From Malacoraja senta (Eukaryota): a stretch of 64,000 nucleotides of DNA. Location: positions 6,076,001-6,140,000 of the forward strand of contig CM075991.1 of NCBI GenBank assembly GCA_038087875.1, in the 5' to 3' direction. Below, one piece after another: positions 746 through 63,581 of this stretch (position 1 is the stretch's first letter; every line of letters begins with the position of its first letter). The translations under genes and the position numbers were made by a program. Under the pieces are notes generated by a model, which worked only from the letters and a program-made list of their open reading frames with translations, did no database searches and had not been told where the DNA came from.

Positions 746-1983
746 AGGCGTATCAAGTCTTGGGATAAGTAAGTAGGTTCCTTACCTATCTTCGACCCAT
801 TAGGACCCCAACAGTGCTGCAGCAGTTAGTTCTTCTGTCACTCCTCTCACAAGGTTTTGGCCAGGATTGGAGCCTCAACCATTGAAAGATTACACACTAT
901 GTTTTGGGCTAAACTTTGAACAATGCCGGTACATTCAAAACACAATAACACCCACAGGAAACAGGAGCTTCTAATCTAGATTCGTCAAAGGAAATCTGAA
1001 ACAGCAAGACATACCAACAAGAGGTATTTGTCGAGTCACGCCGCACTGAGATGGCCCTTCGGCCCACAGAATCAATGCAAGCACCCATTTACACTAAACC
1101 ATACCAATCTCTTTTTAACTCTCCCTCCCTTTCCTTGGATTCAACGCTCACTTGGGGCAAATTACAGTGGATAATTAATCAACCAAACTGCAGATCTTTG
1201 GGATGTGGGAGGAAAGTGTGGCACTCGGAGGAAACCCACTCGGTCACTGGGAGAGCGTGCAAACTCTGCACATACAGCACTGGAGGTCAGTATCGAGCCG
1301 GGGTCGCTGGAGCTGGGAGGCAGTGGCTCCAATGGCTGCACTGTGGCACCATGTCATATGTACACTTGATGATGCCATTATATCTCTAATTGCATGACTT
1401 AGTTACACGTTATACAAACACACCAGTGCGTCGCATGACCTTACGGTGCACAACTTAGCTGCTGCCTTTCCCACAGTGAAAGAGCTCACCCATGGATCAC
1501 TGGTTGCAAAGCACATGCGGATGGATACCCTGTCAGGAGTACAGAGGCACCTTCTGCTCCCTCCGCTGTGCCAGCTGGGCCAATATGTTCCAGTTGTAGG
1601 CAAAGCCTTGACATGAGCTGCCACCCAATCCAATCTGACCCTCACACTTGTTCATGGTGTCATCATTCTCCGCATGAGACCATTTATTGTCCATCCCTGG
1701 TTATCCCCGAACTTGTTTCCAGAGAAAACAATTCAAGTCTGTTCAACCTCTTCCTGGAGCTAATACCCTCTAATCAAGACATCATTCGGGTAAATCTCCT
1801 TGGCACTTTTTCCAAAGCCCCCACATCCTTCCTATAATGGGGCGACCAGAAATGAACACAATGCTCCAAATGCGGTCTAACCAAAATCTGATAGAGCTGC
1901 AACATGACTTCCTGATTACCCCAACCATTGATGGCAAGTATATCATGTGGCTTGTTTGCCAGGAAGGCCTTTCTGAGATAATT

Positions 1984-1990
1984 CCTCTTC

Positions 1991-2022
<32 letters not shown>

Positions 2023-2157
2023 CTTCTTGCGTATGGCGTGCACAGCCTAAAGTTGTAGGACAACTTGTTCTATTTGATCTTACTTGATTGTGCATGCCAG
2101 GTTGATTGCATTCGTTGAAACAGGGCAGACCACGTGAAGGTTGCAATCTCCCACCCC
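1984..2157 (-). mobile_element. Short non-autonomous retroposon with 5' HDV-like ribozyme and (GAA)n tail (Vingi/ingi-like short element), copy 1
   Basis: 12-bp TSD TCTGAGAT(A/C)ATT at 1972-1983 and 2158-2169; 3' end ...CCATACGC(AAG)n; near-identical second copy at 54666-54800. Confidence 0.8.
2104..2157 (-). ncRNA. Predicted minimal HDV-like self-cleaving ribozyme (54 nt)
   Basis: GGGGUGG(P1)-GA-GAUUGCA(P2)-ACC(P3)-UUCACGU(L3)-GGU(P3')-CUGCCCU(P1', G1.U wobble)-G-UUUCAA-CGAA(J4/2 with catalytic C)-UGCAAUC(P2'). Folded by eye. Confidence 0.75.
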
Positions 2158-2266
2158 TCTGAGATCATTGATTACTCAGATCTTTTCCCAGTTTACTATG
2201 CAAGTAGGTGGAACGTATTTGTGAGTGGGATCACTAACACACGTGCCTCTTTTCCTCCCCTGATAG

Positions 2267-12727: not shown

Positions 12728-12972
12728 GTTGGTGATTACGTGCCCACCACGACCCAACCCTCTATCATAAAGGTCAGATGGAAGTTCTTGAATTACTCGT
12801 TTTATTATGTTACTATATTACTTCGTTTGTTGTTTTTTGTGATTTCACACCGCTGCTTCGAAGATTGACGCGCAGGCGCACTGGCGGGGTTCTTCACGTA
12901 ATCACCAACGTAACTCCTCATAAAATAAAGATCAAACTTCAAACTGGTAAGTTCTTGTTTAATCTTACTATT
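12728..12972 (+). mobile_element. DIRS family A, 3' terminal fragment (array unit 1)
   Basis: Matches the 3' end of 18547-24259 including the right ITR and terminal ...AATCTTACTATT. Confidence 0.85.
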
Positions 12973-13183
12973 CCTCTTGTTTTAGATTAAAATGGAAGAT
13001 AATCTTTGAACAGGTAATATTCAGTCGTCTGCTGGACCCTGGTAGGGGAGGGGGAGGGGGGTGGGAGGGGGAGTGAAATCACTATCATTTTCTGAGGATT
13101 GAGCCAACACTCAAAGTGCCGGCCTTCCCAAAACAGTGAAATAGTTCGTGCACTGCTCAAAACTGCTCAAAAACTCAATGTAA

Positions 13184-13496
13184 GACTTCTGGTAGCACCA
13201 TGTTATACTAACAGATGTGCACCTAGCTCCGCTCTCGAAAAAAAATCGTGATTTTTCATGCTAGAACGGGTCTATAAGTCGGAATTGATTTAAAACCTCA
13301 CCGGAGCTTCTGGTCGCCGTGCTGATGATGTCATCAGTACGCGCCGTGCTGATGACGTCATCAGTAAACGTGGCTTAAAGACTTTTAAATGAGAAAACTG
13401 TCTCCAGCTCAGAGCCCTCAGAGAACAGTTAAAAAACAGCTGCTGAAAAACCTGAAGAATCCTGAAGGAGAAGTTACCTCTGAAGTTCCTGAAGTG
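13184..13496 (+). mobile_element. L1 5' UTR + start of ORF1, truncated at the array junction (also 15208-15518, 17229-17514, 24470-24781)
   Basis: Begins GACTTC(C/T)GGT after the same target sequence as the full L1 at 33334 and encodes MRKLSPAQ...EVTSEVPEV, as in that element's ORF1. Confidence 0.9.
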
Positions 13497-13569
13497 CTTA
13501 CTAATCTCATATTTCAAAATATTAATTGCAAACGAGAACTCCAAAGTACTCCTACTCAATCCATAAATC

Positions 13570-14084
13570 CAGAATGCAGCCGCCCGACTCATTACCCAGA
13601 CCAAATCCTGGCACCACATCACCCCAGTTCTCAAAGAACTCCACTGGCTTCCCATTTCCCACCGGATCATCTACAAAATCCTGGTCCTCACCTACAAAGC
13701 CCTCAACCACTTGGCCCTCCCTTATCTCACTGACCTCCTCTCCCCCTACCAACCCTCACGGTCCCTCAGATCCACATCAGCTGGTCTCCTCTCCACTCCG
13801 AAATCAAACCTCTGCACTTTTGGAGGCAGAGCCTTCTCCAGGGCAGCTCCCAGGCTCTGGAATTCCCTCCCACAACTGATCCGAAATTCTGAGTCCCTCA
13901 CCATCTTCCAGTCCCGCCTCAAGACCCATCTCTTCACTTCTGCATACCCTTAGTCCCATGTTCCCCTCCCTTTTGCATCTCTGTCTTACTGCTCCAATTT
14001 TTTTGTTTATTCTTGACTCTCAATGTAAAGCGACTTTGAGTCCTGAAAAGCGCTATATAAATAAAATGTATTATTATTATTATT
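13570..14084 (+). mobile_element. 5'-truncated L2-clade LINE (also 15592-16106, 17588-18102, 24855-25370)
   Basis: QNAAARLITQTKSWHHITPVLKELHWLPI...PSRSLRS...AFSRAAPRLWNSLP...FQSRLKTHLF, stem-loop 3' UTR and (TAT)n tail; probable TSD ATAAATC at 13563-13569 / 14085-14091. Confidence 0.9.
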
Positions 14085-14528
14085 ATAAATCATGCCTCTA
14101 ATGTTTAGACTTTGACCCCCCTGGTCCAAAGTTTCCAAAACTGGTGGAACAGATTTCTCAGAATCATTTCCTTTATCAGTTTCCTTCCTTATCTTGGAAG
14201 CTACAATGAACTTAATCCCTTGATGTTGTTTTCCTGTCAATTTATAAATGTATATTTTCAGAGAATTTCTCAATCCAGGTGTTGGACTCAAGAATGAGAA
14301 TAAAAATGTTGCACCAAGCAGGATTGCAACACTACAGATGAATGGACTTTAACCCAGTTCATGCCATTGATTTTTGGACTGAATGACATGAATTTAATCC
14401 ACATTTAGAAAGCATTTGGCAGGTTGCTGTTCAAATCAGGTAGAAGGGGGAAATAGACAGTGGATGGAAGGATTGAACACCTTGCAGGTGGCCACCATAC
14501 AACATTATACAGAGACAGAAACAATCAC

Positions 14529-14995
14529 ATTTTACTTCGGAGTCACGTGAGTGACTACGTGAAGAACCCCGCCAGTGCGCCTGCGCGTCCGAGTCAATCA
14601 ATGCAGTGAGAAGCCGGGATTTGTCTGCGGCATGATATCACAAAGCTTTCAAATCTTCACGTAGTCACTCACGTGACTCCGAAGTAAAATAGTAAGATTA
14701 AACTAGAACTTACCAGTTTGAAGTTTGATCTTTATTTTATGAGGAGTTACGTTGGTGATTACGTGCCCACCACGACCCAACCCTCTATCATAAAGGTCAG
14801 ATGGAAGTTCTTGAATTACTCGTTTTATTATGTTACTATATTACTTCGTTTGTTGTTTTTTGTGATTTCACACCGCTGCTTCGAAGATTGACGCGCAGGC
14901 GCACTGGCGGGGTTCTTCACGTAATCACCAACGTAACTCCTCATAAAATAAAGATCAAACTTCAAACTGGTAAGTTCTTGTTTAATCTTACTATT
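14529..14995 (+). mobile_element. 467-bp internally deleted mini-DIRS (family A), unit 2
   Basis: Left ITR joined directly (GCGCGTC|CGAGTCAATC) to the 3' region with the ICR and right ITR; ATT at both ends. Confidence 0.9.
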
Positions 14996-16547
14996 CCTCT
15001 TGTTTTAGATTAAAATGGAAGATAATCTTTGAACAGGTAATATTCAGTCGTCTGCTGGACCCTGGTAGGGGAGGGGGAGGGGGGGTGGGAGGGGGAGTGA
15101 AATCACTATCATTTTCTGAGGATTGAGCCAACACTCAAAGTGCCGGCCTTCCCAAAACAGTGAAATAGTTCGTGCACTACTCAAAACTGCTCAAAAACTC
15201 AATGTAAGACTTCCGGTAGCCATGTTATACTAACAGATGTGCACCTAGCTCCGCTCTCGAAAAAAAATCGCGATTTTTCATGCTAGAACGGGTCTATAAG
15301 TCGGAATTGATTTAAAACCTTACCGGAGCTTCTGGTCGCCGTGCTGATGATGTTATCAGTAAGCGCCGTGCTGATGACGTCATCAGTAAACGTGGCTTAA
15401 AGACTTTTAAATGAGAAAACTGGCTCCAGCTCAGAGCCCTCAGAGAACAGTTAAAAAACAGGTGCTGAAAAAGCTGAAGAATCCTGAAGGAGAAGTTACC
15501 TCTGAAGTTCCTGAAGTGCCTACTAATCTCATATTTCAAAATATTAATTGCAAACGAGAACTCCAAAGTACTCCTACTCAATCCATAAATCCAGAATGCA
15601 GCCGCCCGACTCATTACCCAGACCAAATCCTGGCACCACATCACCCCAGTTCTCAAAGAACTCCACTGGCTTCCCATTTCCCACCGGATCATCTACAAAA
15701 TCCTGGTCCTCACCTACAAAGCCCTCAACCACTTGGCCCTCCCTTATCTCACTGACCTCCTCTCCCCCTACCAACCCTCACGGTCCCTCAGATCCACATC
15801 AGCTGGTCTCCTCTCCACTCTGAAATGAAACCTCTGCATTTTTGGAGGCAGAGCCTTCTCCAGGGCAGCTCCCAGGCTCTGGAATTCCCTCCCACAACTG
15901 ATCCGAAATTCTGAGTCCCTCACCATCTTCCAGTCCCGCCTCAAGACCCATCTCTTCACTTCTGCATACCCTTAGTCCCATGTTCCCCTCCCTTTTGCAT
16001 CTCTGTCTTACTGCTCCAATTTTTTTGTTTATTCTTGACTCTCAATGTAAAGCGACTTTGAGTCCTGAAAAGCGCTATATAAATAAAATGTATTATTATT
16101 ATTATTATAAATCATGCCTCTAATGTTTAGACTTTGACCCCCCTGGTCCAAAGTTTCCAAAACTGGTGGAACAGATTTCTCAGAATCATTTCCTTTATCA
16201 GTTTCCTTCCTTATCTTGGAAGCTACAATGAACTTAATCCCTTGAGGTTGTTTTCCTGTCAATTTATAAATGTATATTTGCAGAGAATTTCTCAATCCAG
16301 GTGTTGGACTCAAGAATGAGAATAAAAACGTTGCACCAAGCAGGATTGCAACACTACAGATGAATGGACTTTAACCCAGTTCATGCCATTGATTTTTGGA
16401 CTGAATGACATGAATTTAATCCACATTTAGAAAGCATTTGGCAGGTTGCTGTTCAAATCAGGTAGAAGGGGGAAATAGACAGTGGATGGAAGGATTGAAC
16501 ACCTTGCAGGTGGCCACCATACATTATACAGAGACAGAAACAATCAC

Positions 16548-17014
16548 ATTTTACTTCGGAGTCACGTGAGTGACTACGTGAAGAACCCCGCCAGTGCGCC
16601 TGCGCGTCCGAGTCAATCAATGCAGTGAGAAGCCGGGATTTGTCTGCGGCATGATATCACAAAGCTTTCAAATCTTCACGTAGTCACTCACGTGACTCCG
16701 AAGTAAAATAGTAAGATTAAACTAGAACTTACCAGTTTGAAGTTTGATCTTTATTTTATGAGGAGTTACGTTGGTGATTACGTGCCCACCACGACCCAAC
16801 ACTCTATCATAAAGGTCAGATGGAAGTTCTTGAATTACTCATTTTATTATGTTACTATATTACTTCGTTTGTTGTTTTTTGTGATTTCACACCGCTGCTT
16901 CGAAGATTGACGTGCAGGCGCACTGGTGGGGTTCTTCACGTAATCACCAACGTAACTCCTCATAAAATAAAGATCAAACTTCAAACTGGTAAGTTCTTGT
17001 TTAATCTTACTATT
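16548..17014 (+). mobile_element. 467-bp internally deleted mini-DIRS (family A), unit 3
   Basis: Same deletion junction and flanks as 14529-14995. Confidence 0.9.
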
Positions 17015-18546
17015 CCTCTTGTTTTAGATTAAAATGGAAGATAATCTTTGAACAGGTAATATTCAGTCGTCTGCTGGACCCTGGTAGGGGAGGGGGAGGG
17101 GGGGGGTGGGAGGGGGAGTGAAATCACTATCATTTTCTGAGGATTGAGCCAACACTCAAAGTGCCGGCCTTCCCAAAACAGTGAAATAATTCGTGCACTG
17201 CTCAAAACTGCTCAAAAACTCAATGTAAGACTTCCGGTAGCGCCATGTTATACTAACAGATGTGCACCTAGCTCCGCTCTTGAAAAAAAATCGCGATTTT
17301 TCATGCTAGAAAGGGTCTATAAGTCGGAATTGATTTAAAACCTTACCGGAGCTTCTGGTCGCCGTGCTGATGACGTCATCAGTAAACGTGGCTTAAAGAC
17401 TTTTAAATGAGAAAACTGTCTCCAGCTCAGAGCCCTCAGAGAACAGTTAAAAAACAGCTGCTGAAAAACCTGAAGAATCCTGAAGGAGAAGTTACCTCTG
17501 AAGTTCCTGAAGTGCCTACTAATCTCATATTTCAAAATATTAATTGCAAACGAGAACTCCAAAGTACTCCTACTCAATCCATAAATCCAGAATGCAGCCG
17601 CCCGACTCATTACCCAGACCAAATCCTGGCACCACATCACCCCAGTTCTCAAAGAACTCCACTGGCTTCCCATTTCCCACCGGATCATCTACAAAATCCT
17701 GGTCCTCACCTACAAAGCCCTCAACCACTTGGCCCTCCCTTATCTCACTGACCTCCTCTCCCCCTACCAACCCTCACGGTCCCTCAGATCCACATCAGCT
17801 GGTCTCCTCTCCACTCCGAAATCAAACCTCTGCACTTTTGGAGGCAGAGCCTTCTCCAGGGCAGCTCCCAGGCTCTGGAATTCCCTCCCACAACTGATCC
17901 GAAATTCTGAGTCCCTCACCATCTTCCAGTCCCGCCTCAAGACCCATCTCTTCACTTCTGCATACCCTTAGTCCCATGTTCCCCTCCCCTTTGCATCTCT
18001 GTCTTACTGCTCCAATTTTTTTGTTTATTCTTGACTCTCAATGTAAAGCGACTTTGAGTCCTGAAAAGCGCTATATAAATAAAATGTATTATTATTATTA
18101 TTATAAATCATGCCTCTAATGTTTAGACTTTGACCCCCCTGGTCCAAAGTTTCCAAAACTGGTGGAACAGATTTCTCAGAATCATTTCCTTTATCAGTTT
18201 CCTTCCTTATCTTGGAAGCTACAATGAACTTAATCCCTTGATGTTGTTTTCCTGTCAATTTATAAATGTATATTTTCAGAGAATTTCTCAATCCAGGTGT
18301 TGGACTCAAGAATGAGAATAAAAACGTTGCACCAAGCAGGATTGCAACACTACAGATGAATGGACTTTAACCCAGTTCATGCCATTGATTTTTGGACTGA
18401 ATGACATGAATTTAATCCACATTTAGAAAGCATTTGGCAGGTTGCTGTTCAAATCAGGTAGAAGGGGGAAATAGACAGTGGATGGAAGGATTGAACACCT
18501 TGCAGGTGGCCACCATACAACATTATACAGAGACAGAAACAATCAC

Positions 18547-21500
18547 ATTTTACTTCGGAGTCACGTGAGTGACTACGTGAAGAACCCCGCCAGTGCGCCT
18601 GCGCGTCATTACGTCAGACGCATTGGCGCAAACAGACGCGAGGAGCAGAGCTCCTCTAGTGGAATTGTAGTTTTCAACTACAAGATATAGCAATGTTACA
18701 AAATTTTGAGATTTTAAAAATAAAGTCTGCAATTTATCCCATCAGATAAAGCATAAAAAGAAGTTTAATGTGACACCTAATTCACTTTCATATCTTCAGT
18801 ATTAAAGAAGTCATGGCCATTTTCATACTCGGAAATTAGCATCTTGTTCCCTATTGCTTTTCCATTGACTTAACACAAAAGCTGTGATTGAGGACAGTTA
18901 AAAGCCCATAACTTTCTTAAAAATTAAGATAACTGAAAGAAATTTTCAGTTATTATAGATTGAAGCATTCTGAAACAAATATGAAACAATCTTACTTAGA
19001 AGACATGAAAGTAAAGCATATAATTAGGTAGTTACGTAATTGTAGCTAATTACAAAATTCAATTACTAGATCTAAACATCTATCAATTTCTTAAGAATAG
19101 ATTAACATTTTTAAATAGCCTAAGTGTCCAAATAACATTCACACAATAATTCACAATATAACATAATTTTTAAATCTCATTTTCATGAATTTACAGGCCA
19201 AATGGAAGGAATTGAATGTTTAATACCTGTAAATTAATGAGGATTTAAATCATCTTGTGAGTGAGGATTTCTGGAACGCGATCTTTTGGAACGTTCATTT
19301 GCGGTGAATTTAACCCCGTATTGGCATGAAAAATACTGCCGTTAATTCGGGGAATAAAATCACCGTGTCGCATGAAAAAATGTGAATTAAAGGCTTCTTA
19401 AGAAGCACTTTTATACATTTAAAGAAACCACTTTTGTTTACCTGTCCCATGTGTGAAATCCGTCCCCGTTATCGGCGTTTACGCTTCAGAAGCTGCTTTT
19501 AAAATTACTCTAGCGCTGACATTGACGATTTAATAAAAATTAAAAAAACACAAAAGGCCACTAGGAACGATTTGTCAGCCAAGGCTTGTACTCCAACAAA
19601 ATATTAACCAGGACAAGGGAGGAGAAACCCGCGTTTTAACCCCGTCCCCCCTTAAAGGCGCCAAAATCGCGCACACGGCCAGTGGCAGAATTGCAGCGCG
19701 ACTGAAGGTAAGTTTTGTAACATACCTACAAGATAAGTATAAACTTTTTTGGAAGTATTTCCGTGTCCGTTTACTGTGGGTTTGTGGGGATTTTTTCCAC
19801 AGGCATCATGGAAAAAACGGGCAAGGGGAGGAGGCGAGCGGCACAGCCGACAGAGAGTCGCGAGATTGCGGTCGGCGACCAGCCGCCTCTGACCACGGTA
19901 CAGTCGCCAGCAGACAGCATAGCGACTGTGGATATTGGGGCTGAAGTGAATTTAGTCAGCACCAGTGGGGCAAGGCAAAGCCGATAAAAAGCTGCGGGAA
20001 TGCGGTCGGTAAAGGACTGCCTCATACCCTACAACAGTCGCCGGCTGGGAGCGGGGCGAACTGTGGATTTGTGTATTAAAGAAAAGAACGGAGCCAGCGT
20101 CAGTTGGGTGCTAGGCAACATACAAGTCAGGGCCATGGAGCAAGAGTCAGTTTGGGATTCACCTCCAAGACTGGATACCACTTTCTGAGTGGATATTCCA
20201 AATGGAGAACCTGTACACAGGTTGCTCCAACAATACATACTCCAGGAGGAGTGATGTCAGAACCAGGCTCTAGAAGCCAGGTCAGCAGCACCGAGTAAAG
20301 GGCTGCTTGATAGCATCCTCATTGATGAGGCGCGTGCACAGGGTCAGCAGAGTTTCCAAAACAAGCAAAGACGGCAGCTGCCAGATGTTTTACTCCTGGC
20401 AGTACGATTCGCTGCCCCGTCAGAGTCAGGAGAGCCACTTGGAAAGGAAGTGGGCTCTGTGATCAACTATTGTGTCTGCCATCAGCACTAGTAGATTACG
20501 ATGGATGAAAATGCCCAAAAAGCACGAGATCCCAAGGAACTGCGTATTGCTGAAAGTACTAGCAGTGAACCAAGATATAAGGGGTCAGATGGGCGAAGGC
20601 ATGTAAGCCTAAGGAAAGTAAACTGCAGAGAATATTGAAGCTGCTGGGTTGATGAACAACTGCAATTTGCAAATCAATGGATGGAGGCCATGGATGGAGA
20701 TGCATCAAGTGGCACTAAGGTTGCTATGTAGCGCCCACTTCAAGAAGAATTGTTTCAGGAAGTATACCATTCGGTCCACCATCAACCCAAAGTTGCAACA
20801 ACTCTGTAAAGCCCAGCAATGTGCAGTCATTCAACTTATTCTTCAGAGAAAAAACCTCATGAATCGTGGGAAAGAGTTGGATAATGAGGCAAAAACAGCA
20901 AAGTTGATCACAACATCAATGGTCATCAAGTCTGCAAAGAGGACGTATCCTTTCAGACATCATACAAAATCCTGGACCGACATCAGGATCAAATCGACCA
21001 TTGAAGCAGGTGCGCAGTTGATGCCCTGCAGCAGGAAAAACGAAAAAGCGTGGGTTTTGCCTGCCAGGAGCCAGAGACCACAGGTCACTCAGATGACAAA
21101 GGAGGTAGGTGGACCTGGTTCTTATGGGAACATATTAAGGCAAAAACAGCCAAATATTGGAAGCAAATTACTTAAATTATTATTCTGAGTATTATAGAAA
21201 GGTTTCGAATTGATTCGATTCAAATACTGGTTTGCCATCCAGCATGTTCCAAGCAGAACACTCCAATTTCACATAAAAATAATTGATGGAGGTTCAAGCT
21301 GAATTGAAAACTTGTTTAGAAACAAGTAATTGAAAGCTCGGTTTATCAAAACCACCAAATTGTGTTTAAAATTTCTCAACCTAAAAAGGTGAGGAGTATT
21401 TTAGATCTGACAAGTCTTTAAAAGTTTGTGAAGTATAGACACTTCAAAATGGAGACTTTGAGACTGCCAAACAATTTATTTCAAAAAAGATGTTTTATGG

Positions 21501-24259
21501 CACTTCTAGATCTGAAAGATGTATATTACTTAGTGTTTGTTCATTTATAAGATAAAATTATCTGAAGGAACAATTATGGCAATTCAAAGTTCTGTCTAAC
21601 GGGTTAACTTCAGTTCCTAGAATTTCACTAGATTGGTAAAAACAATTTTGGGGCTAATTAGAGTCCAAGGACAGATGTGGATGGCTTAACTGGATGATGT
21701 CCTAATTAGGACGAACAAGAGAATTAGTGAGTTATCTCTCTCAAATTATTCAAACCACTTTTGAAAGTTGGGTTTAATTCATCCAGAGAGAAATTAAGTT
21801 TAACGATACTTACAACAATTGATTATTTGATTCAATTGAAAGGGTAGTAATTTACCCAAAGTAAAGCTAATTGATGGTTGTATTAAGCAGTTGGAAAAGC
21901 AACAATCTTCAATTAAGACAGGTGGCCAGCTTGTTAGGAGAATTAGTGTTATTTCCAGCAATACAATATGGGCCATTGTACTACCAGCAGCTGCAGACTG
22001 CAAAAAGAAAAAACACTAAGATGCATGATGGCCATTTTTTGATAGGCCATGCAATTAAACAACAAATGCTGCTTTTGATTGCAGTAGTGGATTTAACATG
22101 TCTTCAGTAGTTCAAGCAAGATACGGATTGAACAGCCTTCCATGGTCTTAACAGACTGATATCAGTGTACTAGGATTGGTGCCACTGAAAAGGTATCCAT
22201 CTATGGACAGATGGAATATGGAAGAAGTATTATTTTACAGACATGGAGAATCGATGTTTTAAAGTCTATTGGAAGGCTTATGAGCTACAAGCTTGTTGTT
22301 TAATACAACTAATCTGCATGTTCAGTTTCAAATTAACAACACTACAGCAATGGCATGTATTAATTGTATGGGTGGAATTTCCATGATAACAAAGAATGGA
22401 TGTTTAACCTTAAGATTTTTTAATGATATAATAGTCAGATTTGGGCAGCCAGATATGATTTATTTCCATCCAGACTCAATCACCAGTTACAGAGATATGC
22501 GTTATGGGACTACATCGGGAGACAGTAGCGATGGATGTTTCTCGCTATATTAGGATGGTATGTTGTTATAGGCATTTTACTTCATCCTGTCTCATAAATC
22601 GGTGTCTGCTTAAAACGAAGCAGTATGCTGCCTCTGGGGTATTCGTGGTACCAGACGGGTCTACGCAGCCATGGTTCCCTTTGATATTGGAATTTATGAC
22701 ACAGTTTCTGATAAATGTTCCCAAAAGAAGGAAGTTACTGGTGTATTCGATAATTGGAGAGTAACATCCGTCATATGCCTGTATGGATGCAGGTTTTAAA
22801 AAAGAGGATTGTCTGGGCATGCTGCGGACATGCTTACAGCAGTCTGGCGGAAGAGTACTCAAAAGCAGTACATTTGTGAATCTGAGTTGTGACTCTGTAA
22901 ATGCTGCTTTCCCATTATGTAAAGGAGAACAAATTTCTGTGTATAAAAGAATATGGAAGGTTGTATGGCACATGTCTCAAATGTTTTGGATTTACCTCTA
23001 TTTAAGGGGTTGAGTTAGTACGATTTATTCAGACAGAAGTATATTATTCCTTGTTTTTATTGATGAGGTTGTAAAGACATCCTGTTGAGTTTCGTTCTTT
23101 CATTTCCAGTTTAATGAAAGGAATTTTAATTCCAGACCTTCTAAACCTAGGAAGGGATCTGGAATATAGAGTTGTTTCAAGCTACTTCATCAATGGAGTC
23201 TTGGTACGATTCTGATTTGGCCAAGTTCAGCATGGAGGTATTCATGCTTATGGCACTTGTAACATTACAAAAGTTACAGATACACAGGATGGAAGTACCT
23301 CAGGATTATGTTATGTTTTACATTTTAGGACCTACTCAAAGTAGGATCAGGTGTGATGGGATTCAAGAGTGTTTTATTAGCATATTCTATGGATCCATGT
23401 CTATATGTTAAGACATATTTGTTGCAATACATTGAGGCTACAAAGGTCTTATGAAATATGAAAACAAGATTGTTTACATTCATGAAAAACCATACAAGAT
23501 AGTGTCAGTTCAGACTATTTTAAGATGGTTAAAAACAAGTTTTGGTTGCTGCAGGTGTGAACATTGATGGTTTTACATTCCATTCAGTTTAGCAGCAACA
23601 TTGACGACCAGGGCGAAGGACGTCCCGTCGACCATATTTTCACAGCCTGCCGGGTGATCTATTAAGTTGGTGTTTCAACACTTTTACCATTGGCCTATTG
23701 CCAATACGGGGCTGTTGGAAGATACTATATTAAGTTCTGCTTAAATTTCCCTGGGTTAAAGGGGATACTGTTAATTCTCTTATTCAAATAAATGAATTAC
23801 TGCATTTGTCAGGCAAATGTTATTATTCATGCATTATTGATTATTTCTCGTTCCGAGTCAATCAATGCAGTGAGAAGCTGGGATTTGTCTGAGGCATGAT
23901 ATCACAAAGCTTTCAAATCTTCACGTAGTCACTCACGTGACTCCGAAGTAAAATAGTAAGATTAAACTATAACTTACCAGTTTGAAGTTTGATCTTTATT
24001 TCATGAGGAGTTACGTTGGTGATTACGTGCCCACCACGACCCAACCCTCTATCATAAAGGTCAGATGGAAGTTCTTGAATTACTCGTTTTATTATGTTAC
24101 TATATTACTTTGTTTGTTGTTTTTTGTGATTTCACACCGCTGCTTCAAAGGTTGACGCGCAGGCGCACTGGCGGGGTTCTTCACGTAATCACCAACGTAA
24201 CTCCTCATAAAATAAAGATCAAACTTCAAACTGGTAAGTTCTTGTTTAATCTTACTATT
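18547..24259 (+). mobile_element. Near full-length degenerate DIRS1-type tyrosine-recombinase retrotransposon (family A)
   Basis: Left ITR from ATTTTACTTCGGAG; right ITR 24153-24259; ICR 23918-24029 complementary to both termini. Broken gag (~19808-21110), RT (FKMET, LDLKD.Y, LDD ~21400-21720), RNase H (NTTAMACIN ~22335), methyltransferase-like (VVPDGSTQPWFP ~22645) and YR remnants (~23100-23743), with many stops and frameshifts. Confidence 0.9.
18688..19728. mobile_element. Non-autonomous TIR DNA transposon, copy 2, inserted in the DIRS A 5' region
   Basis: TSD CAAGATA at 18681-18687 and 19729-19735; empty site with single CAAGATA at 31007-31013 in the paralogous DIRS copy. Confidence 0.9.
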
Positions 24260-25681
24260 CCTCTTGTTTTAGATTAAAATGGAAGATAATCTTTGAACAG
24301 GTAATATTCCGTCGTCTGCTGGACCCTGGTAGGGGAGGGGGGGGGGGTGGGAGGGAGAGTGAAATCACTATCATTTTCTGAGGATTGAGCCAACACTCAA
24401 AGTGCCGGCCTTCCCAAAACAGTGAAATAGTTCGTGCACTGCTCAAAACTGCTCAAAAACTCAATGTAAGACTTCCGGTATCGCCATGTTATACTAACAG
24501 ATGTGCACCTAGCTCCACTCTGGAAAAAAATCGCGATTTTTCATGCTAGAACGGGTCTATAAGTCGGAATTGATTTAAAACCTTACCGGAGCTTCTGGTC
24601 GCCGTGCTGATGATGTCATCAGTAAGCGCCGTGCTGATGATGTCATCAGTAAACGTGGCTTAAAGACTTTTAAATGAGAAAACTGTCTTTAGCTCAGAGC
24701 CCTCAGAGAACAGTTAAAAAACAGCTGCTGAAAAACCTGAAGAATCCTGAAGGAGAAGTTACCTCTGAAGTTCCTGAAGTGCCTACTAATCTCATATTTC
24801 AAAATATTAATTGCAAACGAGAACTCCAAAGTACTCCTACTCAATCCATAAATCCAGAATGCAGCCGCCCGACTCATTACCCAGACCAAATCCTGGCACC
24901 ACATCACCCCAGTTCTCAAAGAACTCCACTGGCTTCCCATTTCCCACTGGATCATCTACAAAATCCTGGTCCTCACCTACAAAGCCCTCAACCACTTGGT
25001 CCCCCCTTATCTCACTGACCTCCTCTCCCCCTACCAACCCTCACGGTCCCTCAGATCCACATCAGCTGGTCTCCTCTCCACTCCGAAATCAAACCTCTGC
25101 ACTTTTGGAGGCAGAGCTATCTCCAGGGCAGCTCCCAGGCTCTGGAATTCCCTCCCACAACTGATCCCAAATTCTGAGTCCCTCACCATCTTCCAGTCCC
25201 GCTTCAAGACCCATCTCTTCACCTCTGCATACCCTTAGTCCCATGTTCCCCTCCCCTTTGCATCTCTGTCTTACTGCTCTATTTTGTTTTGTTTATTCTT
25301 GACTCTCAATGTAAAGCGACTTTGAGTCCTGAAAAGCGCTATATAAATAAAATGTATTATTATTATTATTATAAATCATGCCTCTAATGTTTAGACTTTG
25401 ACCCCCCTGGTCCAAAGTTTCCAAAGCTGGTGGAACAGATTTCTCAGAATCATTTCCTTTAACAGTTTCCTTCCTTATCTTGGAAGCTACAATGAACTTA
25501 ATCCCTTAAGGTTGTTTTCCTGTCAATTTATAAATGTATACTTTCAGAGAATTTCTCAATCCAGGTGTTGGACTCAAGACTGAGAATAAAAACGTTGCAC
25601 CAAGCAGGATTGCAACACCACAGATGAATGGACTTTAACCCAGTTCCTGCCATTGATTTTTGGACTGAATGACATGAATTT

Positions 25682-28600
25682 AATAGTAAGATTAAACGAG
25701 AACTTACCAGTTTGAAGTTTAATCTTTATTTTATGAGGAGTAACGTTGAGGGATTACGTGAAGAAGACCCCGTCCAGCCGCACACGCGTCAATCTTTCAA
25801 AGCAGCGGAGTGACAATCACAAACGATAATTACTGAAGTATGATAGTAAGAAGCATAAAGGCTTAGAACTACCAGCTTGATCCTTTTATGAGGGTGGGAG
25901 CGGAGGGCACGTAATCCCTCAACGTTACTCCTCATAATATAAAGATCAAACTTCAAACTGGTAAGTTCTCGTTTAATCTTACTATTTTACTTCGGAGTCA
26001 CGTGAGTGACTACGTGAAGATTTCAAAGCTCTGTGATTTCACACCGTGGATTAAAATCCAGCTGCTCACTGCACTGATTGACTCTATTTGAGTAAGCACA
26101 ATCAACAATGCATAACCATAACATTAAATGTAATCAGTTAATGGTTTTATTTATTTTAACAATTTAACCCATTTATCATAATGGGGTATTTAATACTGAA
26201 CCCAGCACGGCATCACCAAACACCCCCGGGATCTTTAATCTCCTTATGGTAATACTTGTGAAACATCTGTTCACTTGCCCATCCTGCGGCCGCGAGGATA
26301 AGGTCTATTGGAACGTCTGAATCCCTGGCCGCCGATGTTGATGCCCCCCTGGTGGAATGAGATTTTAATTTATCAGTATCAATACCTGAATAATCAACAC
26401 CTGTTTCAACCATCTTGAAATTGTCTGTGTTGACACTTTCTTATGAGGACTTTTATGACTAATAAAATGCTAATTATGTGCCTCTTAAGATTCTGTTTGT
26501 TTCCATGTAACATCTTACATATATTACCACACATAGCCATGGATCCGTAGGATATGCTGAAAACTCCAACTTACATCCTGTGAACCGAGGTCTACTTTGC
26601 TTCAGTAAATCATAGACATAGAATGTAACGGCATCTGCCCCTACTTTCATTCTGTCAATTTAATTTCTGTAATGTTTGAGCTCTCTGAGCTGAAACTAAT
26701 GCCGTCAGCATAACCAATTTCATGGTGATTTCGGCTAATGACAGAGTTTCAATAGGATTCCAATCCCTCAGCAGTATCAGTACATCTTTAACATTCCAGA
26801 TTTCTGTATACCTATTATGAAAATTCCCTTCATAAACCTACAGACCCAAGGATGTGATCCTATTGAATTTTGTTCTGATTCACTGCCTAATATGCAGAGA
26901 GTGCACTTCGTGCAGTATTGTTTGCACTAACTTAATTTTTAATTCGTAGTAAAGAGTTGAAAGAAACTTTAATACATCTGAAATTTCTGCTGTGTTATAT
27001 GCAATATTCTTTCCTGAACAAAACACCTCCTATTTCTTTATATAAGAAATGTACTGCTTCTGGGTACTATTCCTCCAGGCTGTTGATATACCATCCACCG
27101 TACGGTCTGATAATCCTCTTCCAAGATATGGCCTTTTCAGAATCTGCAAATCAACAAACCAATACGATCATGTAAAGGATGTGGTTCATTAGTTACAGGG
27201 TTTACAAGCAGTTTCACCTGCTTTGGAATAACCATAAGGGGTTCTTTGACTATGTTTAACACCAGTGGATACCATAGCTGTGTAGGCCAATCTGGTACCA
27301 CCAAAATCCCCGAGGCTGAGTCCTGTTTAATTTTCTGTATGTATCTATTGATTTAAACAAAATGGAGGAAATGCATACAGAAACATATCACCCCAATGTA
27401 GCGAGAAAGCATCTACCGCTACTGCACCAGGATCAGGTTCCCATGACACATACTTAGGCAATTGGTGGTTTAGTCTTGATGCAAACAATCAATCTTTGGC
27501 ATTCCAAATCGTGTTACAATTTGCTTAAATATTTCCTGATGTAACATCCATTCTGTATTATCATTAAATTTACGTGAGCTTTTGTCTGCAATTGTGTTAA
27601 ATTTTCCTGGTAAATATATTGCTGACAGCCAGATTTTCCTGACAATACACCAGGTCCAAATTTCATTTGCCAATCTATCACATGATTCTGATTTGATACC
27701 ACCCATGTGATTTATGTATGCTACAGCTGTAGTATTGTCAACCTGTACCTGAACATGCACATTTCCCATATTAGTGCAATAAGCTTTAAGGCCATGAAAT
27801 GCTCCTAACAGCTCTAGGTAATTTATTCCTTAATCTTCAAGCAAAGGTACTTCATCAACATTCCACCTACCTCCACAGCTGGAAATCATGTTAGTTGCGC
27901 CCTCCAAGAGCACTTACATCAGTCTGTAGAATGACAGAAGGTGTTTCTACCAGAACATTTCTGGAAGCATTAGAGACATTGTTAATCCACCATTCTATTT
28001 TTGTAATGGATCCAATTGTTAATTTCATGGGCCTGTCAAATTGCCCTGTATTCATTTTTAATGCTTGTACCTTAGCCCTATGCAAACATTGATAATGCAA
28101 TGGTCCAAACCTGACAGCTGGAAACCCAGCAATTAATTTGCCCATCAAGCTTGCCACTTCTCTAATTAAAGGCTTGTCCTCGTTTATGTGTTTAGTGCAA
28201 CATTCAATTAACTGCAGCCTTTTCTCTTTTCGCAAGGTGATTACCATGTGTTCAGAGTTAATTGTGAACCCTGGGTAATCAATGTTCTTGCTTTGTAACA
28301 ATTTAGATTTTTGTAGGTAAATAATGAAACCCATTTTTTCAAAATGTATTTGACTCTCGATACTGACAATTTTGTAGTAGCCAAAGTGTCCCGCACAATC
28401 AGAATATCATCTAAATAAACCATTAATACATGGCCCTCAGCTCTTAGCAGAGCTAAAAATCGGTTTGAGTAATTTAGTGAATAATCTTGGTGCTGTAGTC
28501 AGGCCATTTGGGCAATGCTTTAAATTGCCATAACTGACATCCATCTAAATTTCATATATCTTTGATCATTACCATGCATTGCCACAGAATAATATGCATT

Positions 28601-30742
28601 TTGCAGATTTATGCTTGCCATGTAGCAATTCTTTGTGACCAGCTGAATGGCATTAGTAAATGTTTCCATTTTGAAATGTTTCTATTGTACATAAAGCTTA
28701 AGATTTGTCAGATCCAAAATGATTCTACATCTACCATCCCTTTTTTTTTTTTTTTTCCTTAGGAGAATATTTGACAGAAACTGATGGTGTTGTTCTACTG
28801 ACATTTCTATTACCCCTTTTCTGCATAAAATGTTTCATTTCTCCATTGATCGACTTACTCTCTTCCTTTGAGAAAATCCGTGACCAGTTTGAATTATGCT
28901 GAATTGGAGGATCCAAACGTGGAGGGAACTCAATTTTGAATCCTACCATGCTACATAGAATAAATGAATCATTTGTTATTGATTGCCATTCTTTTAGGAA
29001 GAATCGTAACCTTCCCCCTATTTGTGAGTTGTGAAACATTTGTTGTGTTTCTTACCAGACCAAGGCCCCCTACCTCAGGGTTTGCCACTGGCAATTGTCC
29101 CCTTCTAGTAGGCACATTGTAACCTCCACGTATCCTCGGTGCAGCACGTCAACGTGTATACGAGAATGATAGGATTGTTCTTTCTCCAGCACCAGCATTT
29201 CGCCTGTAGGGATACTGCCTTCGCACCGCTCTGCTCAGCATAGGTGATCCTTTAGTTTCTTTGCTAGATTTTCTCCAAAAAGCAGATTTAGGCATTTGTA
29301 TATTGGATGGTTTGCAGAGCCTGCATACTTAGGATGAATATTTGGTCTTATTGCATTTTTACGAATACAATTTATTTCAAAGTGCGCACTACACATGGGT
29401 GCTAAGGCATTTTGTTGTGAATCCAATATAAAATCTTCATCCAAACCACTGGCAACGCCGTAATGCCTGACCCCAGCAATTTCCGTACTTGTGTAATTTC
29501 AATTCTTGTGAGCGTAAACCACTGCTCAAATAACCCATATCAAGTTATTCACTGCTGGAATTGCTACAATTTTCGGGGGTCTCATCTTTTTTGATAGTCG
29601 CATCCATAGTGAATTCCTAGGCTGATGGGAGAGTAGATAATTTATAGTCATAGCTATTTCCTCTCTCAAAGGTTCACCTGTTACTCTGGGAACAGCAAAC
29701 TTTTGTGCCAGCCTTGGAACATTTTTAGATCTGATAATGGGCTCTGGTCCTCATATAAATCATCATCTAAATCTAGATATTCATTTTTATGTTGGGTAAT
29801 TTCTGGCTCCCCTGTTTCAGGTAAGTCTCTGCCAGATTTCCCCTGCGCTGGCTCTCTTGTAGGCCCACGGATAGGCAGCCCTGCTTCAGGTACTGCTGGC
29901 GCTGGCTCAATTCTAGGCCAACGCTTCATTATTTTTACTCTTTATATTGTCGGTGCTGGCACATATGTCATTGCACGTTTGTGCTGCCTTTTGTTCAGGC
30001 ATTTCTAGTACTGGCTCTCCAATAGGCCAACACATATATTGCCTTTTTTCTGGCATTTTTGGGCACTGGCTCTCCTGTAGGCCAACCTCTTTAATGTTTC
30101 TGCACAGGCATTTCTGATGGCTCTCCTGTAGGCCACCCTTGTGCCTGTCCCATCCAAGGCACCTCCTGTGCTATACTTCATTGGCCAACCCCGACTTAAA
30201 TCCTCCTGTGGGGTTCTTTATAAATCATCTGCCCCATAAGGAGTTCTAAAGTTTTGACCCTTGCAGTGCAATATTCTTTCCTGCCTGAGGAGGGTATATC
30301 TCCGGGTCTGACTCATCCGAGTCTACAGGTCGGGCCGACTTTTGTCCAGCCTTGTGCCCCGCCGCCGGCGGTTTAACGGCATACTCGACCACAACGGGAG
30401 TTAATGGCTTCGCTGCCGCTGACTCCACTGACTGGCGCCCGCTACCCTTAGGATCTGGGGTTTTACTACGGTGCGTCCCTGACCGCCTCTCCTTCCCCCT
30501 TTCTCCATAATAAACTTGTGTGGAGCTCCACCAACAAGTCTGAACGGGAAGGAAATGCTCCTGTAAGTGAAAGTAACCCACTTACCTTCCGACTTTTGCT
30601 TACTTTTGCTTTACTCACCGGTCGGAGGAGCTCCTGCTCCTCCACACACGGTCATGAACGCTCTGCGTCTGATCGATATGATGCGTGTGCGGCTGGATGG
30701 GGTCTTCTTCACGTAGTCACTCACGTGACTCCGAAGTAAAAT
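25682..30742 (-). mobile_element. Full-length degenerate DIRS1-type retrotransposon (family B)
   Basis: ITRs and ICR (~25908-26020) as in family A; RT YLDD (ORF 28241..28423), RNase H QVDNTTAVAYINHMGG (27470..27769), MT LYAFPPF (~27360-27380), YR C-terminus HSTRGAS...AAGW...YY (26213..26413); AAT at both ends, and the empty site TTTAATCCACA is present in the other array units. Confidence 0.93.
26213..26413 (-). pseudogene. DIRS tyrosine recombinase C-terminal fragment
   Basis: H-x-x-R (HSTR), AGW and catalytic Y region typical of DIRS YR; upstream part is frameshifted. Confidence 0.85.
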
Positions 30743-30872
30743 CCACATTTAGAAAGCATTTGGCAGGTTGCTGTTCAAATCGGGTAGAAGGGGGAAATAG
30801 ACAGTGGATGGAAGGATTGAACACCTTGCAGGTGGCCACCATACAACATTATACAGAGACAGAAACAATCAC

Positions 30873-32046: not shown

Positions 32047-32250
32047 CCTCTTGTTTTAGATTAAAATGGAAGATAATCTTTGAACAGGTAATATTCAGTC
32101 GTCTGCTGGACCCTGGTGGTAGAGGGGAGGGGGGGGTGGGAGGGGGAGTGAAATCACTATCATTTTCTGAGGATTGAGCCAACACTCAAAGTGCCGGACT
32201 TCCCAAAACAGTGAAATAGTTTGTGCACTGCTCAAAACTGCTCAAAAACT

Positions 32251-54386: not shown

Positions 54387-54665
54387 TGTGGCATTCCTAC
54401 CTGAAATATAATATCAGAAGGGAGTATCTGGAGCCAAAGACTGTGGCATGGTTATGTATAAATGCTAAAAAAGATACCGGCACATGGGACAGCACCTTGG
54501 CACAGCTAACATCGGCCTCATAGTGCCATGGACCCAGTGCAATACTGAGCCATTCATATATGCAGTTTGCAACTTCTTTGTGCGATGGTGTAAGTTTCCT
54601 CCGGGTCCTCCAGTAGTTTCACTGGCGTCCCAAAGCATGGTCCTGGTCTTTTCTCGCCTCCTGCT

Positions 54666-54800
54666 TCTTCTTGCATATGGCAGGCACAGCCTAAAGTGGT
54701 AGGAAACTTGTTCTATTTGATCTTATTTGATTGTGCACGCCAGGTTGATTGCATTCGTCGAAACAGGGCGGACCACGTGAAGGGTGCAATCTCCCACCCC
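54666..54800 (-). mobile_element. Short non-autonomous retroposon with 5' HDV-like ribozyme (54747-54800), copy 2
   Basis: Perfect 12-bp TSD TCGCCTCCTGCT at 54654-54665 / 54801-54812; 5' end at the predicted G1; P1' CCGCCCU and UUCG loop; one P3 mismatch (CCC/GGU). Confidence 0.8.
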
Positions 54801-57309
54801 TCGCCTCCTGCTCTTCACCAACCTTCCACCCACTCCCTTCGCACCCCCTACTGAAGAGGTTCCCAAACCAAAACGTCACCCATCCTTTTTCTCGAGATGC
54901 TGCTTGACCCGTTGAGTTCCACCAGCACTTCGTATCTACCTTGGGTTGGTAGCTTAATTGTCCGCTGTAGGTGAGTGGATAGGATGTGGGAGGAATTAAC
55001 AATCATTGGACGTGTAAATGGGTCAGTGTGGACTCGATGGGTTGAAGTGCCTGTTTGCATGACTCTTCTCTCTATGACTGTTCTGGGAGTAGAGGGTTCA
55101 TAAAACGTAGACCTGTTACAGCACAAGAACAGGCCTTTGGCCCACATGTCCGTGCCGAACATGATGCCAAGACCATCGCTAATCCACCTGCACATAACCC
55201 ATCTCCATATGCCAATCCAAAAGTCTTTCAAATGCCACTAACATATCTGTTTCACCCACCACCCAAACCAGTGTGTTCCAGGCACTCACCGCCATGTAGA
55301 GATGCCCCACACATCTCCTTTATACTTTGCCCCTATCGACTTAAAGCTATGCCTCTAATATTTGATATTTCCACCCCAGGAAAAAAGATTCTGACTGTCT
55401 TCACCATCTGTGCCTCTCATAATTTTATAAGCAACATAATTGACCGATTTTGTAGCAGTAGTCAGCGGGCTCTCTAAGATGAACATGGTGTGTTTGAGTG
55501 GAATTAAGTGGCAGGTGTGAGTTAGTCATGGGTGATTAAAATACAGTACTGGTGGATGTAGCGATAAAACCCACGTCAGAGAAATCCATTAGTCAGAGTA
55601 CAGGACAAATAATGGCTTAATAAATCTTCAGAGGATGTGCGAAGAATTATGTCAAGATTGCCTTACACAAAGGATGAAGCCTCACCATAAATGAATCATT
55701 TACCTCTGATGCTCAAAGGAGAAACTGCTTCATGATGTCTCATCCACCTTTGACGTGGGCAATTTCATAGACAGCTTGAGAAGCGCAGAGACCAGTTCCC
55801 TGCATTAGACCAGTCACTGTGCCGTGGAGTAATAAAAGCTATTCCCTTTCCCCCACATCTTCAAGTTGAAGAGACCGAGTCATCTAATTGCGAAGCAGAA
55901 GAGCGAGATTTAACGTGGGCAGAATTCAGACTTTCAAGTGTAAAGCAGCTGACAATGCCAGACCAAAGGAACATTATGTGTCAATGATCATTGGGTCAGG
56001 CAGAATTACTCCAGCATTTTCTGTCTACCTTCAATTTAAACCGGCATCTGCAGTTCTTTCCTGCAAATGATTATCATTGCATGTTTCTTAAAGGTGAAAG
56101 CATCATTTATCCGTATAAATCTATTCCATGAATAGTCAGTGTTATAGAACGTGGAAACAGGCTCTTCAGCCAAAGCATTTCCATGCAGCCCAACATGCCC
56201 CATCTACACTAGTCTCCCTGCCTGCTTTTGGCCCATATCCCACTAAATCTACCCTACCTATTTACCTGTCTAAAAGATTCTTAAATGTTGCTGTGGTACC
56301 TGCCTTAACTATCTCCTGCACAGTCTCTTGCCCAGGGTAGGTGAATCAAGGACCAGACATAGGTTTAAGGTGAAGGGGAAAATATGTAATAGGAATTTGA
56401 GGGGTAACTTTTTCCACACATATGGTGGTGGGTGTATGGAACAAGCTGCCAGAGGAGGTAGTTGACGCAGGGATTAACCCACCATTTAAGAAACAGTTCG
56501 ACAGATACATGGATAAGACAGGCTTGGAGGGATTGGACCAAACAGGGGCAGCTGTAGCTGGGACATGTTGGCCGGTGTGGGCAAGATGGGCCGAAGGCCT
56601 GTTTCCACACTGTATCGCTCCACAACTCTTCCGGCAGCTTGTTCCATACACCACCCTTTGTGCAAAAAAAAAGTTACCCCTCAGGTTCCCAATAGTGTCT
56701 CGGTTTTCCTGCATGCCAGTCGGGGGTTGCTTCATTTGATGAGGCATTACAAATGGACATGAACATTGCGTACAATCATCAGCAAACAGCCCAATTCCCA
56801 CAGCCTCTCGCTTGCCCATCACAGCTGTTTCTGTGATCCGCTGCCACAGGGGGGAAAAGAGCCCTTGTGTATATTCAAAGCTGAGATATAGTCCTAATCA
56901 CAAAAGCGACCGAGAGATGTGGGAAAAGGGCAGCGGATTTGAACGCTATCAGATCAGCCATGGACCCATTGAGTGATGGCACAGTCTCAAGGGGCTGAAT
57001 GGCCTGCCGAAACATCACCAAATTAATCACCTCTCGTTCTCTCCCTTTGGTGCCCAGATTTTAATAACTCTGACAGGACTATTAAATAGTGGCTAAATTA
57101 TGAACCTTGGACTATACTTGGCTGCAGTAAGGACTTTGGGCTTTTGTGCACCAGTGTTGGTGTTATTCAATTATTGATTTATTATTATATGCTGTTCATG
57201 AGTACTCTGTTTACAGGCCAGTAATAATTTAATCTTTCCACTCTCAATACATATAACAATTAAACCCTCTTGAGTAGTTGACCAATAATGGCAGGGAAAG
57301 ATGGAAAAT

Positions 57310-63205: not shown

Positions 63206-63381
63206 TTAAGAACTCAGCTGGTCTGTCTGCATCTTTGGAGAGAAATGGACCGACAGTATTTCTTTGGTCAGGGCTGCTCTTCCAACTGACACCTTCTTCA
63301 GTGGGGAGGAATTGTTCACGTTTCAGGTCCTGATGCGGGCGGGGGTCCCTATCCATAAAGTTAACAATTCTTTCCCTCTAA

Positions 63382-63581
63382 NNNNNNNNNNNNNNNNNNN
63401 NNNNNNNNNNNNNNNNNNNNNNNNNNNNNNNNNNNNNNNNNNNNNNNNNNNNNNNNNNNNNNNNNNNNNNNNNNNNNNNNNNNNNNNNNNNNNNNNNNNN
63501 NNNNNNNNNNNNNNNNNNNNNNNNNNNNNNNNNNNNNNNNNNNNNNNNNNNNNNNNNNNNNNNNNNNNNNNNNNNNNNNNN
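63382..63581. other. Assembly gap (200 N)
   Basis: Run of N. Confidence 1.

Follow-up and report, generated by a model that had tools for sequence, protein, structure and literature searches.

A short LINE-derived retroposon in a skate genome whose head is predicted to fold as a P4-less ribozyme of the HDV/CPEB3 type

How can a retroposon of about 135 nt, devoid of a tRNA-type head, begin with the same base in copy after copy? The question is raised by a 64,000-nt stretch of the genome of Malacoraja senta (GenBank assembly GCA_038087875.1, contig CM075991.1, positions 6,076,001 to 6,140,000, forward strand; hereafter the window), in which an earlier note, made from the sequence alone, described two dispersed copies of such an element, each starting exactly at the predicted cleavage site of a minimal ribozyme of the hepatitis delta virus (HDV) type. 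The explanation that we rather strongly favour is that the element derives from a long interspersed nuclear element (LINE), that its HDV-type head, lacking helix P4, would cut itself out of longer transcripts, that the LINE would mobilise it in trans, and that the mammalian CPEB3 ribozyme is a head of the same kind that has been retained.

Both copies were located on the minus strand exactly where they had been reported, each flanked by a target-site duplication (TSD) abutting the first base of the element (G1, from which element positions are numbered). Their parts are listed below in window coordinates.

1984..2157, minus strand: copy 1, non-autonomous retroposon, Vingi-type by the architecture of its partner, including the (GAA)n tail (window comparison, family counts)
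2104..2157, minus strand: copy 1, predicted HDV/CPEB3-type ribozyme fold of 54 nt, G1 at 2157 and predicted catalytic C44 at 2114 (descriptor match, covariation)
2080..2157, minus strand: copy 1, segment contributed by the partner LINE's 5' end, covering element nt 1 to ~78 (match to LINE copy L110)
2022..2062, minus strand: copy 1, segment directly before the (GAA)n tail
2034..2099, minus strand: copy 1, 3' domain with long stem and inner hairpin, arms 2089-2099 and 2034-2044 (folds of family copy L003, inverted match)
1984..2021, minus strand: copy 1, (GAA)n tail, end degenerate
1972..1983, no strand: copy 1, 3' copy of the TSD, 11 of 12 bases as in 2158-2169
2158..2169, no strand: copy 1, 5' copy of the TSD, abutting G1
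54666..54800, minus strand: copy 2, 135 nt, short tail
54747..54800, minus strand: copy 2, predicted ribozyme fold, G1 at 54800 and predicted catalytic C44 at 54757 (descriptor match)
54654..54665, no strand: copy 2, 3' copy of the TSD, 12 of 12 bases matching the 5' copy
54801..54812, no strand: copy 2, 5' copy of the TSD, abutting G1, 12 of 12 bases matching

The two copies are 92.8% identical over 138 nt, and no third copy was found in the 64-kb window. The TSD boundary of copy 2 is ambiguous by one base, the next base being G on both sides. The (GAA)n tail ascribed to both copies is long in copy 1 (15.7 units) but amounts to only about two units in copy 2. Similarly, the 54-nt consensus proposed earlier is identical to the head of L003, which agrees with the majority letter throughout positions 1-54 of the tail-picked sample described below, but each window copy has defects of its own: copy 1 carries C31U, which gives P1 a third wobble, together with G42A, and copy 2 carries A17C, which breaks the first P3 pair. 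A descriptor of the HDV fold (P1, P2, P3, L3, G37 and C-N-A-A) retrieved exactly these two copies in 64 kb and nothing in 20/20 dinucleotide-matched controls, in a relaxed form that tolerates one mismatch in the window (two in the metagenome loci considered later); in its strict form it recognised neither window copy and none of the metagenome loci. The Rfam HDV and CPEB3 models, which the earlier note had suggested as a check, gave no match in the window or in copy 2, and the element family gives no hit on the mammalian CPEB3 model (RF00622; cut-off 35 bits). A vertebrate host, likewise proposed from the sequence alone, agrees with the best named relatives of a LINE fragment of the window, which come from skate (92%), devil ray (85%) and stingray (74%) and point to a batoid fish, probably a skate.

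The family was then characterised in the whole genome (1.94 Gb; G000) through two samples of 30 loci, one picked by head and one by tail. An exact 28-nt head pattern matched 2,414 times and a tail pattern 3,169 times, with no match to either reversed control, and the overlap of the two samples (10 loci in common) gives a family size of ~6,000-9,500 copies, with a mean divergence of 4.8% from a majority-like copy (27 copies). Duplications of ~11 bp were present at 26/30 tail-picked and 27/30 head-picked loci, and 24 of the 26 in the tail-picked sample end at G1 or one base into the element. The expected pile-up of 5' ends was found: 28 of the 30 tail-picked copies reach the region of the first base, 27 aligning from nt 1-3 and one starting at G1 with an internal deletion, while two are truncated. 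Unrelated flanks also begin at G1 in contigs of four runs from four organisms (an RNA origin of these runs is only a guess), at no fewer than 38, 8, 1 and 445 loose ends, the last run having at least 69 further loose ends one base inside G1. The element has, in short, a fixed 5' boundary at G1, a pile-up that leaves the mechanism behind it unspecified and that, in an element of 135 nt, fits a ribozyme cut and a promoter start alike.

The majority head comprises a 7-bp P1, a 2-nt J1/2 junction, a 7-bp P2, a 3-bp P3, the L3 loop UUCACGU, G37-U38, a 5-nt linker and CGAA or CUAA. As modelled, it fits the HDV nested double pseudoknot with P1, P2 and P3, and the layout put forward in the earlier note is upheld by covariation of the stems. 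Among eight heads of related elements, 97.9% of the alignment cells are paired and 12/18 pairs are changed on both sides, a level reached by none of 500 shuffles, with slid structures giving 39-50% paired. These figures refer to an alignment from which decayed, truncated or 6-bp-P1 heads (L179, L134, L132, L164, L169, L110 and L191) are excluded, which raises the paired fraction, and in which L180 is one column off in P1. The G1-U36 wobble of the majority occurs in 5/8 heads and is G-C in 1/8; C44 is invariant in 8/8 heads and in 28/28 tail-picked copies; and the putative single C22-G37 pair (P1.1) could form in 8/8 heads, being invariant and hence without covariation, in the same arrangement as in the CPEB3 sequence. 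We regard the covariation as strong support for an HDV-type fold, a grading that is not to be read as a probability. The commonest head variants of the tail-picked sample fall at unpaired or tolerant places, namely G8A (8/27; unpaired, in J1/2), G32A (6/26; turning the wobble U5-G32 into the Watson-Crick pair U5-A32) and G45A/U (12/28). The minimum-energy fold of the isolated 54 nt consists of P1 and P3.

A P4 consisting of one pair closed by a UUCG tetraloop had been read from the sequence and was considered and rejected, the closing U38-A43 pair costing 4.9 kcal/mol and the loop variant G42A being common (634 exact matches). In place of a stable helix the head seems to have a 5-nt linker, which fits the minimal P4-less class of HDV-like ribozymes (PMC10879173).

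Where the head comes from was answered by the search, proposed in the earlier note, for an autonomous LINE sharing both ends of the element. A pattern joining a tryptophan codon to the element tail, the codon position being guided by the usual form of such LINE ends, gave 196 genome matches against none for the control, and 8/8 fetched LINE 3' ends have the last 35-40 nt of the element in common, next to an open reading frame (ORF) with a C-terminal Cys/His motif. A near-complete LINE copy of ~3.08 kb on contig C1 comprises, starting at head nt 8 (L110), a short 5' untranslated region (UTR), APE and reverse transcriptase (RT) domains and the 3' end (L113), its middle being covered by search matches rather than fetched sequence and its ORF broken in places. 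L110 is 90% identical to the element over nt 9-77, and the 3' end and tail of the element are shared with the LINE as well. Pfam recognised APE and RT, with no RNase H, in five open stretches of this LINE as well as in its closest full-length relative (1,019 aa), which is 71% identical over the stretch searched; other relatives include a 22-member Anolis cluster at 50% identity, which its source does not call Vingi. One ORF that encodes APE and RT, the lack of RNase H and a length of ~3.1 kb define the Vingi architecture (PMC13708176), and the partner is best described as a 3.1-kb Vingi-type LINE, an assignment by architecture and by the head layout of the gharial Vingi-2 rather than by a tree with labelled references.

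The element consists of the first ~78 nt of the LINE, ~18 nt of local repeat and the last ~40 nt of the LINE, followed by the (GAA)n tail. As read from this composition, it is an internally deleted, bipartite non-autonomous LINE of the NARTc/RIME/SIDE type and not a classic short interspersed nuclear element (SINE); of the ribozyme-SINE proposed earlier, the dispersed retroposon of ~135 nt stands, but not the separate head, and its self-cleavage and independence from a promoter are predictions. The same holds for the nearly P4-less vertebrate ribozyme, which is retained as a vertebrate, P4-less head with the refinement that it was inherited from the LINE. One further copy, L084, has extra LINE 5' sequence and a different junction, which suggests more than one independent deletion. 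At the 5' end of the LINE itself, 16 junctions comprise 12 plain truncations, one start at nt 8 and three copies with an inverted 5' piece (L099:1192-1369, L107:1225-1301 and L109:373-440) ending within head nt 5-10, L107 having a short fold-back duplication in addition. Twin priming is presumably the cause of these inversions. In one of the three, the inverted piece is continuous with sequence found only in the LINE, which shows the head to be part of the LINE's RNA.

The 3' 82 nt of the element form a separate hairpin (-23.9 kcal/mol), in which the outer stem joins sequence from the LINE 5' end to sequence from the LINE 3' end. It was also observed that the 5' and 3' UTRs of the LINE are complementary over ~8-9 bp (L110, L093), that element nt 59-69 pair with 114-124, and that the commonest variant of the short element lengthens the LINE complementarity to 11 bp. 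Such complementarity may have made the deletion easier, or helped both ends to be packaged.

Heads of the same layout occur in other elements. A profile of 38 homologous proteins led to 76 metagenome loci, of which three pass the descriptor (none in six controls) and eight more have decayed or partial heads of one family, four of them parsed. The layout was noted in Vingi-like metagenome elements at L129:54-130, L179:280-359, L180:2296-2365 (minus strand), L189:3314-3385, L134 and L132, and the contigs that contain these elements probably come from animal hosts; one metagenome subfamily has a 6-bp P1, and L129 matches the CPEB3 model weakly (15.8 bits, E 1.7). In the skate genome, 39 of the 60 listed matches to RF00622 lie above the 35-bit cut-off, the best at 64.2 bits, and none exceeded it in 14 control genomes. 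Four of the 39 loci were fetched (the L190-L194 set). The three long matches represent one further LINE family, whose heads have a full P4 and precede a common ORF start, and they score 61-64 bits (L190-L192, L194); the extended ORF of one member matches the N-terminus of the homologue profile (E 4e-17). Their heads are as follows.

G000 C21:8958106-8958189: head of the second Vingi-type LINE family; CPEB3 model match followed by an APE-type ORF start
G000 C1:217550485-217550568: head of the same family, likewise matched and followed
G000 C2:157111914-157111997: head of the same family, likewise matched and followed

Another short element, L193 (G000 C13:8595935-8596155), is ~174 nt long, is flanked by an 11-bp duplication and ends in an AAG tail. 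The 54-nt head of L193 is P4-less, with a 5-nt linker and a CPEB3-like P3; 10/17 pairs differ on both sides from those of the element, and its core occurs at 12 genome sites within one mismatch.

The sequence of events that these data suggest begins with the internal deletion of a 3.1-kb Vingi-type LINE, which left ~78 nt of its 5' end, ~40 nt of its 3' end and the (GAA)n tail. Transcription of a copy of the element would start at a host promoter or at the element's own start; the ribozyme would cut 5' of G1 by means of C44 and remove the upstream flank, and the product would be a uniform, compact RNA with a 5'-OH end. The LINE protein would then bind the shared 3' end and the cDNA would be inserted by target-primed reverse transcription, giving the ~11-bp duplication; with the cut placed ahead of the entire ribozyme, each new copy would be complete again. 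The head layout is probably general to Vingi-type LINEs, the CPEB3 ribozyme being most simply one such head retained in an intron.

A head that acts mainly as an internal promoter starting at +1 would produce the same boundary, the inherited fold being slow or dead, or serving 5'-end protection or as a template aid. We consider this unlikely, though it is the rival with the most to be said for it. The head of the trypanosome LINE L1Tc is a promoter from +1 as well as a ribozyme (PMC3383444), and its essential CGTG at +25 to +28 (PMC4748587) has a counterpart in the element at +24 to +27; neither the second skate LINE family nor L193, however, retains that motif. Since RNAs of 135 nt seldom suffer 5' truncation, a fixed RNA start would be enough to give the pile-up at G1. 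Against a mere promoter stand the conservation of C44, of all helices and, in most heads, of the two A positions after C44, and the fact that two families with different stems both retain the 5-nt linker and C-N-A-A.

Several observations weigh against the self-cutting, LINE-derived head that we prefer. A CpG-decay test for selection on the catalytic C44, based on genome-wide exact-match counts, was null, a result that the promoter alternative can also claim: C44T was counted 208 times against 392 for G45A, and the loop CpG is more skewed (177 for C41T against 634 for G42A), so the asymmetry was dropped as a sign of selection on C44. The heads used for covariation are few (about six families), are related to one another and were chosen with an eye to the structure. 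In 3/27 tail-picked copies a P1 pair is broken by G4A, and all pairs are kept in only 12/20 complete heads. When all 136 nt are folded together, the minimum-energy structure retains P2 and not P1 or P3, with a z-score of -1.34 that is not unusual, as computed by a program that cannot handle pseudoknots. G1-G4 are present in 0/16 LINE 5' junctions, and the placement of the partner in the Vingi clade relies on its architecture and not on a labelled-reference tree. The CpG counts hold an observation of their own, namely that within element nt 41-45 sense-strand G-to-A changes exceed C-to-T changes at both CpGs; this could reflect subfamily expansion or deamination of first-strand cDNA.

The mammalian CPEB3 ribozyme has been linked to memory. 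The skate head has the layout and register of that ribozyme, which is active, as printed by Rfam, in the primer table of PMC10919898 and in the supplement of PMC8233481, with segment lengths of 7-2-7-3-7-3-7 followed by GU (RF00622; PMC8233481). The L3 heptamer is the same and lies at the same place (nt 20-26), as claimed earlier, and so is the putative single C22-G37 pair, as well as J4/2 in the main subfamily of the element; compared by eye, 10/17 pairs differ on both sides and all still pair. The CPEB3 ribozyme differs in being single, intronic and provided with P4, whereas the element is multicopy, mobile and P4-less, and the element family stays below the RF00622 cut-off that its sister families in the same genome surpass. 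A closer likeness is offered by the gharial LINE Vingi-2_Gav, nt 2-74 of which are printed in the supplement of PMC5786205. Its head has the layout of the skate head and, compared by eye, equals the CPEB3 ribozyme at 38/40 positions (nt 2-41) and 14/14 of the last 14, that is 52/54 outside the P4 interior. The alligator SINE2-1_AMi, which derives from it, retains a decayed copy of the head in which CPEB3's 7-bp P4 stem is present. The passages of PMC5786205 make no mention of CPEB3, and Vingi is absent from its list of ribozyme-bearing clades. The human genome contains Vingi fossils (PMC5753468), it has been proposed in general terms, with no source named, that vertebrate ribozymes were domesticated out of mobile elements (PMC7761336), and the CPEB3 ribozyme is said to be without a non-mammalian outgroup.

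The simplest reading of these sequences is that the CPEB3 ribozyme is probably a domesticated Vingi 5' end, acquired in early therian mammals and kept in an intron. In a wider form, which we judge likely, Vingi LINEs across animals would bear a CPEB3-type 5' ribozyme, CPEB3 would be a domesticated Vingi end close to the crocodilian Vingi-2, and the P4-less skate heads, from at least two families, would be active at thousands of sites and could cut sense pre-mRNAs. Convergence of the two on a constrained fold, with CPEB3 not derived from a retrotransposon, would concern the origin of CPEB3 alone. It draws on the shortness of the motif and on a gharial comparison made by eye on printed sequences, but we give it only a small chance: HDV-like ribozymes have only about six invariant nucleotides in common (PMC8256844), stems vary freely among Vingi heads, the Vingi-2 identity with CPEB3 extends into those stems, and a skate LINE head reaches 64 bits on a mammalian model. 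Identity in freely varying stems makes convergence of the Vingi and CPEB3 heads appear unlikely.

An ordinary SINE transcribed by RNA polymerase III, with a decayed tRNA head and a coincidental pseudoknot, is scarcely credible and largely refuted by the LINE match, in that loose likenesses to an A-box and a B-box at nt 5-15 and 37-47 (about three mismatches each to the box consensuses, compared by eye) are outweighed by the lack of any tRNA in ARAGORN scans (0/3 loci), in keeping with the tRNA-less head noted earlier, by a head that is the 5' end of the LINE itself, by the empty descriptor controls and by strong cross-family covariation.

As kinds of element, ribozyme-headed non-autonomous retroposons are known from trypanosomes and R2 (PMC4035085, PMC6765202, PMC8256844), bipartite Vingi derivatives have been described (PMC5786205, PMC4494074), and HDV-like ribozymes that lack P4 show activity in vitro (PMC10879173). 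The nearest parallels are NARTc with L1Tc and RIME with ingi (Pr77, L1TcRz; PMC3383444, PMC4035085), short non-coding elements made of both ends of an ingi-group LINE, with an HDV-like ribozyme whose cut site is +1, as predicted for the skate element, and TSDs of 11-12 bp. The trypanosome NARTc measures 263 nt with a 77-nt head including P4, against 135 nt and a 54-nt head without P4 in the skate, which further differs in its vertebrate host, a partner without RNase H, a (GAA)n tail and an activity that is predicted only. Bipartite derivatives of Vingi-1_EE likewise stem from internal deletion of a ~3.1-kb, single-ORF APE-RT LINE without RNase H (PMC5786205, PMC4494074). The minimal HDV-like ribozymes, such as drz-Mtgn-1 and the theta ribozymes, have the HDV fold without P4 and a short J1/2, but are nearly all from gut phages and often stand beside tRNAs, whereas the skate one heads a vertebrate retroposon; the passages of the same source on its search of human, mouse and protist genomes report no minimal HDV-like ribozymes (PMC10879173). 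The R2 SIDEs of Drosophila (PMC3414825, as cited in PMC4035085) are also short and internally deleted with the HDV-like 5' ribozyme kept; they belong to the R2 clade, are specific to ribosomal DNA sites and have a large ribozyme, whereas the skate element is dispersed and presumably APE-driven.

No link between Vingi and ribozymes, or between Vingi and the origin of CPEB3, was found in the passages searched, key papers and Repbase/Dfam being outside that search, so that an earlier description is possible; the passages of a 2026 bioRxiv ribozyme survey contain no Vingi/CPEB3 link either. What appears new is the P4-less Vingi-type element of a vertebrate and its connection with CPEB3. If correct, this would make the origin of the CPEB3 ribozyme directly testable and supply its missing outgroups, extend the set of LINE clades known to have 5' ribozymes to Vingi, and provide a vertebrate example of a natural HDV ribozyme that lacks P4, in thousands of variants. 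Thousands of potentially self-cleaving inserts would offer a route into introns, with occasional retention. Anolis Vingi-1 is under development for gene writing with its native UTRs (PMC13708176), and the 135-nt element would indicate which ends suffice for mobilisation in trans.

Other repeats were observed in the window. A unit of ~2 kb, containing a LINE-like ORF piece and 78-bp inverted repeats, is present as three tandem copies (97-98% alike) together with a fourth copy and fragments, at 12728-18607, 23852-25684 and 30740-32250. At 33826-39202 (plus strand) there is a long LINE with two ORFs, whose endonuclease and RT-like frames are interrupted by several stops and which we take by eye to be L1/Tx1-like, and RT and RNase H-like frames at 27470-28406 (minus strand) are presumably DIRS-like, again by eye. 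A run of N near the end of the window (~63320-63520) marks an assembly gap or a masked stretch, and a 166-bp tandem duplication with an 81% match occupies 59016-59348.
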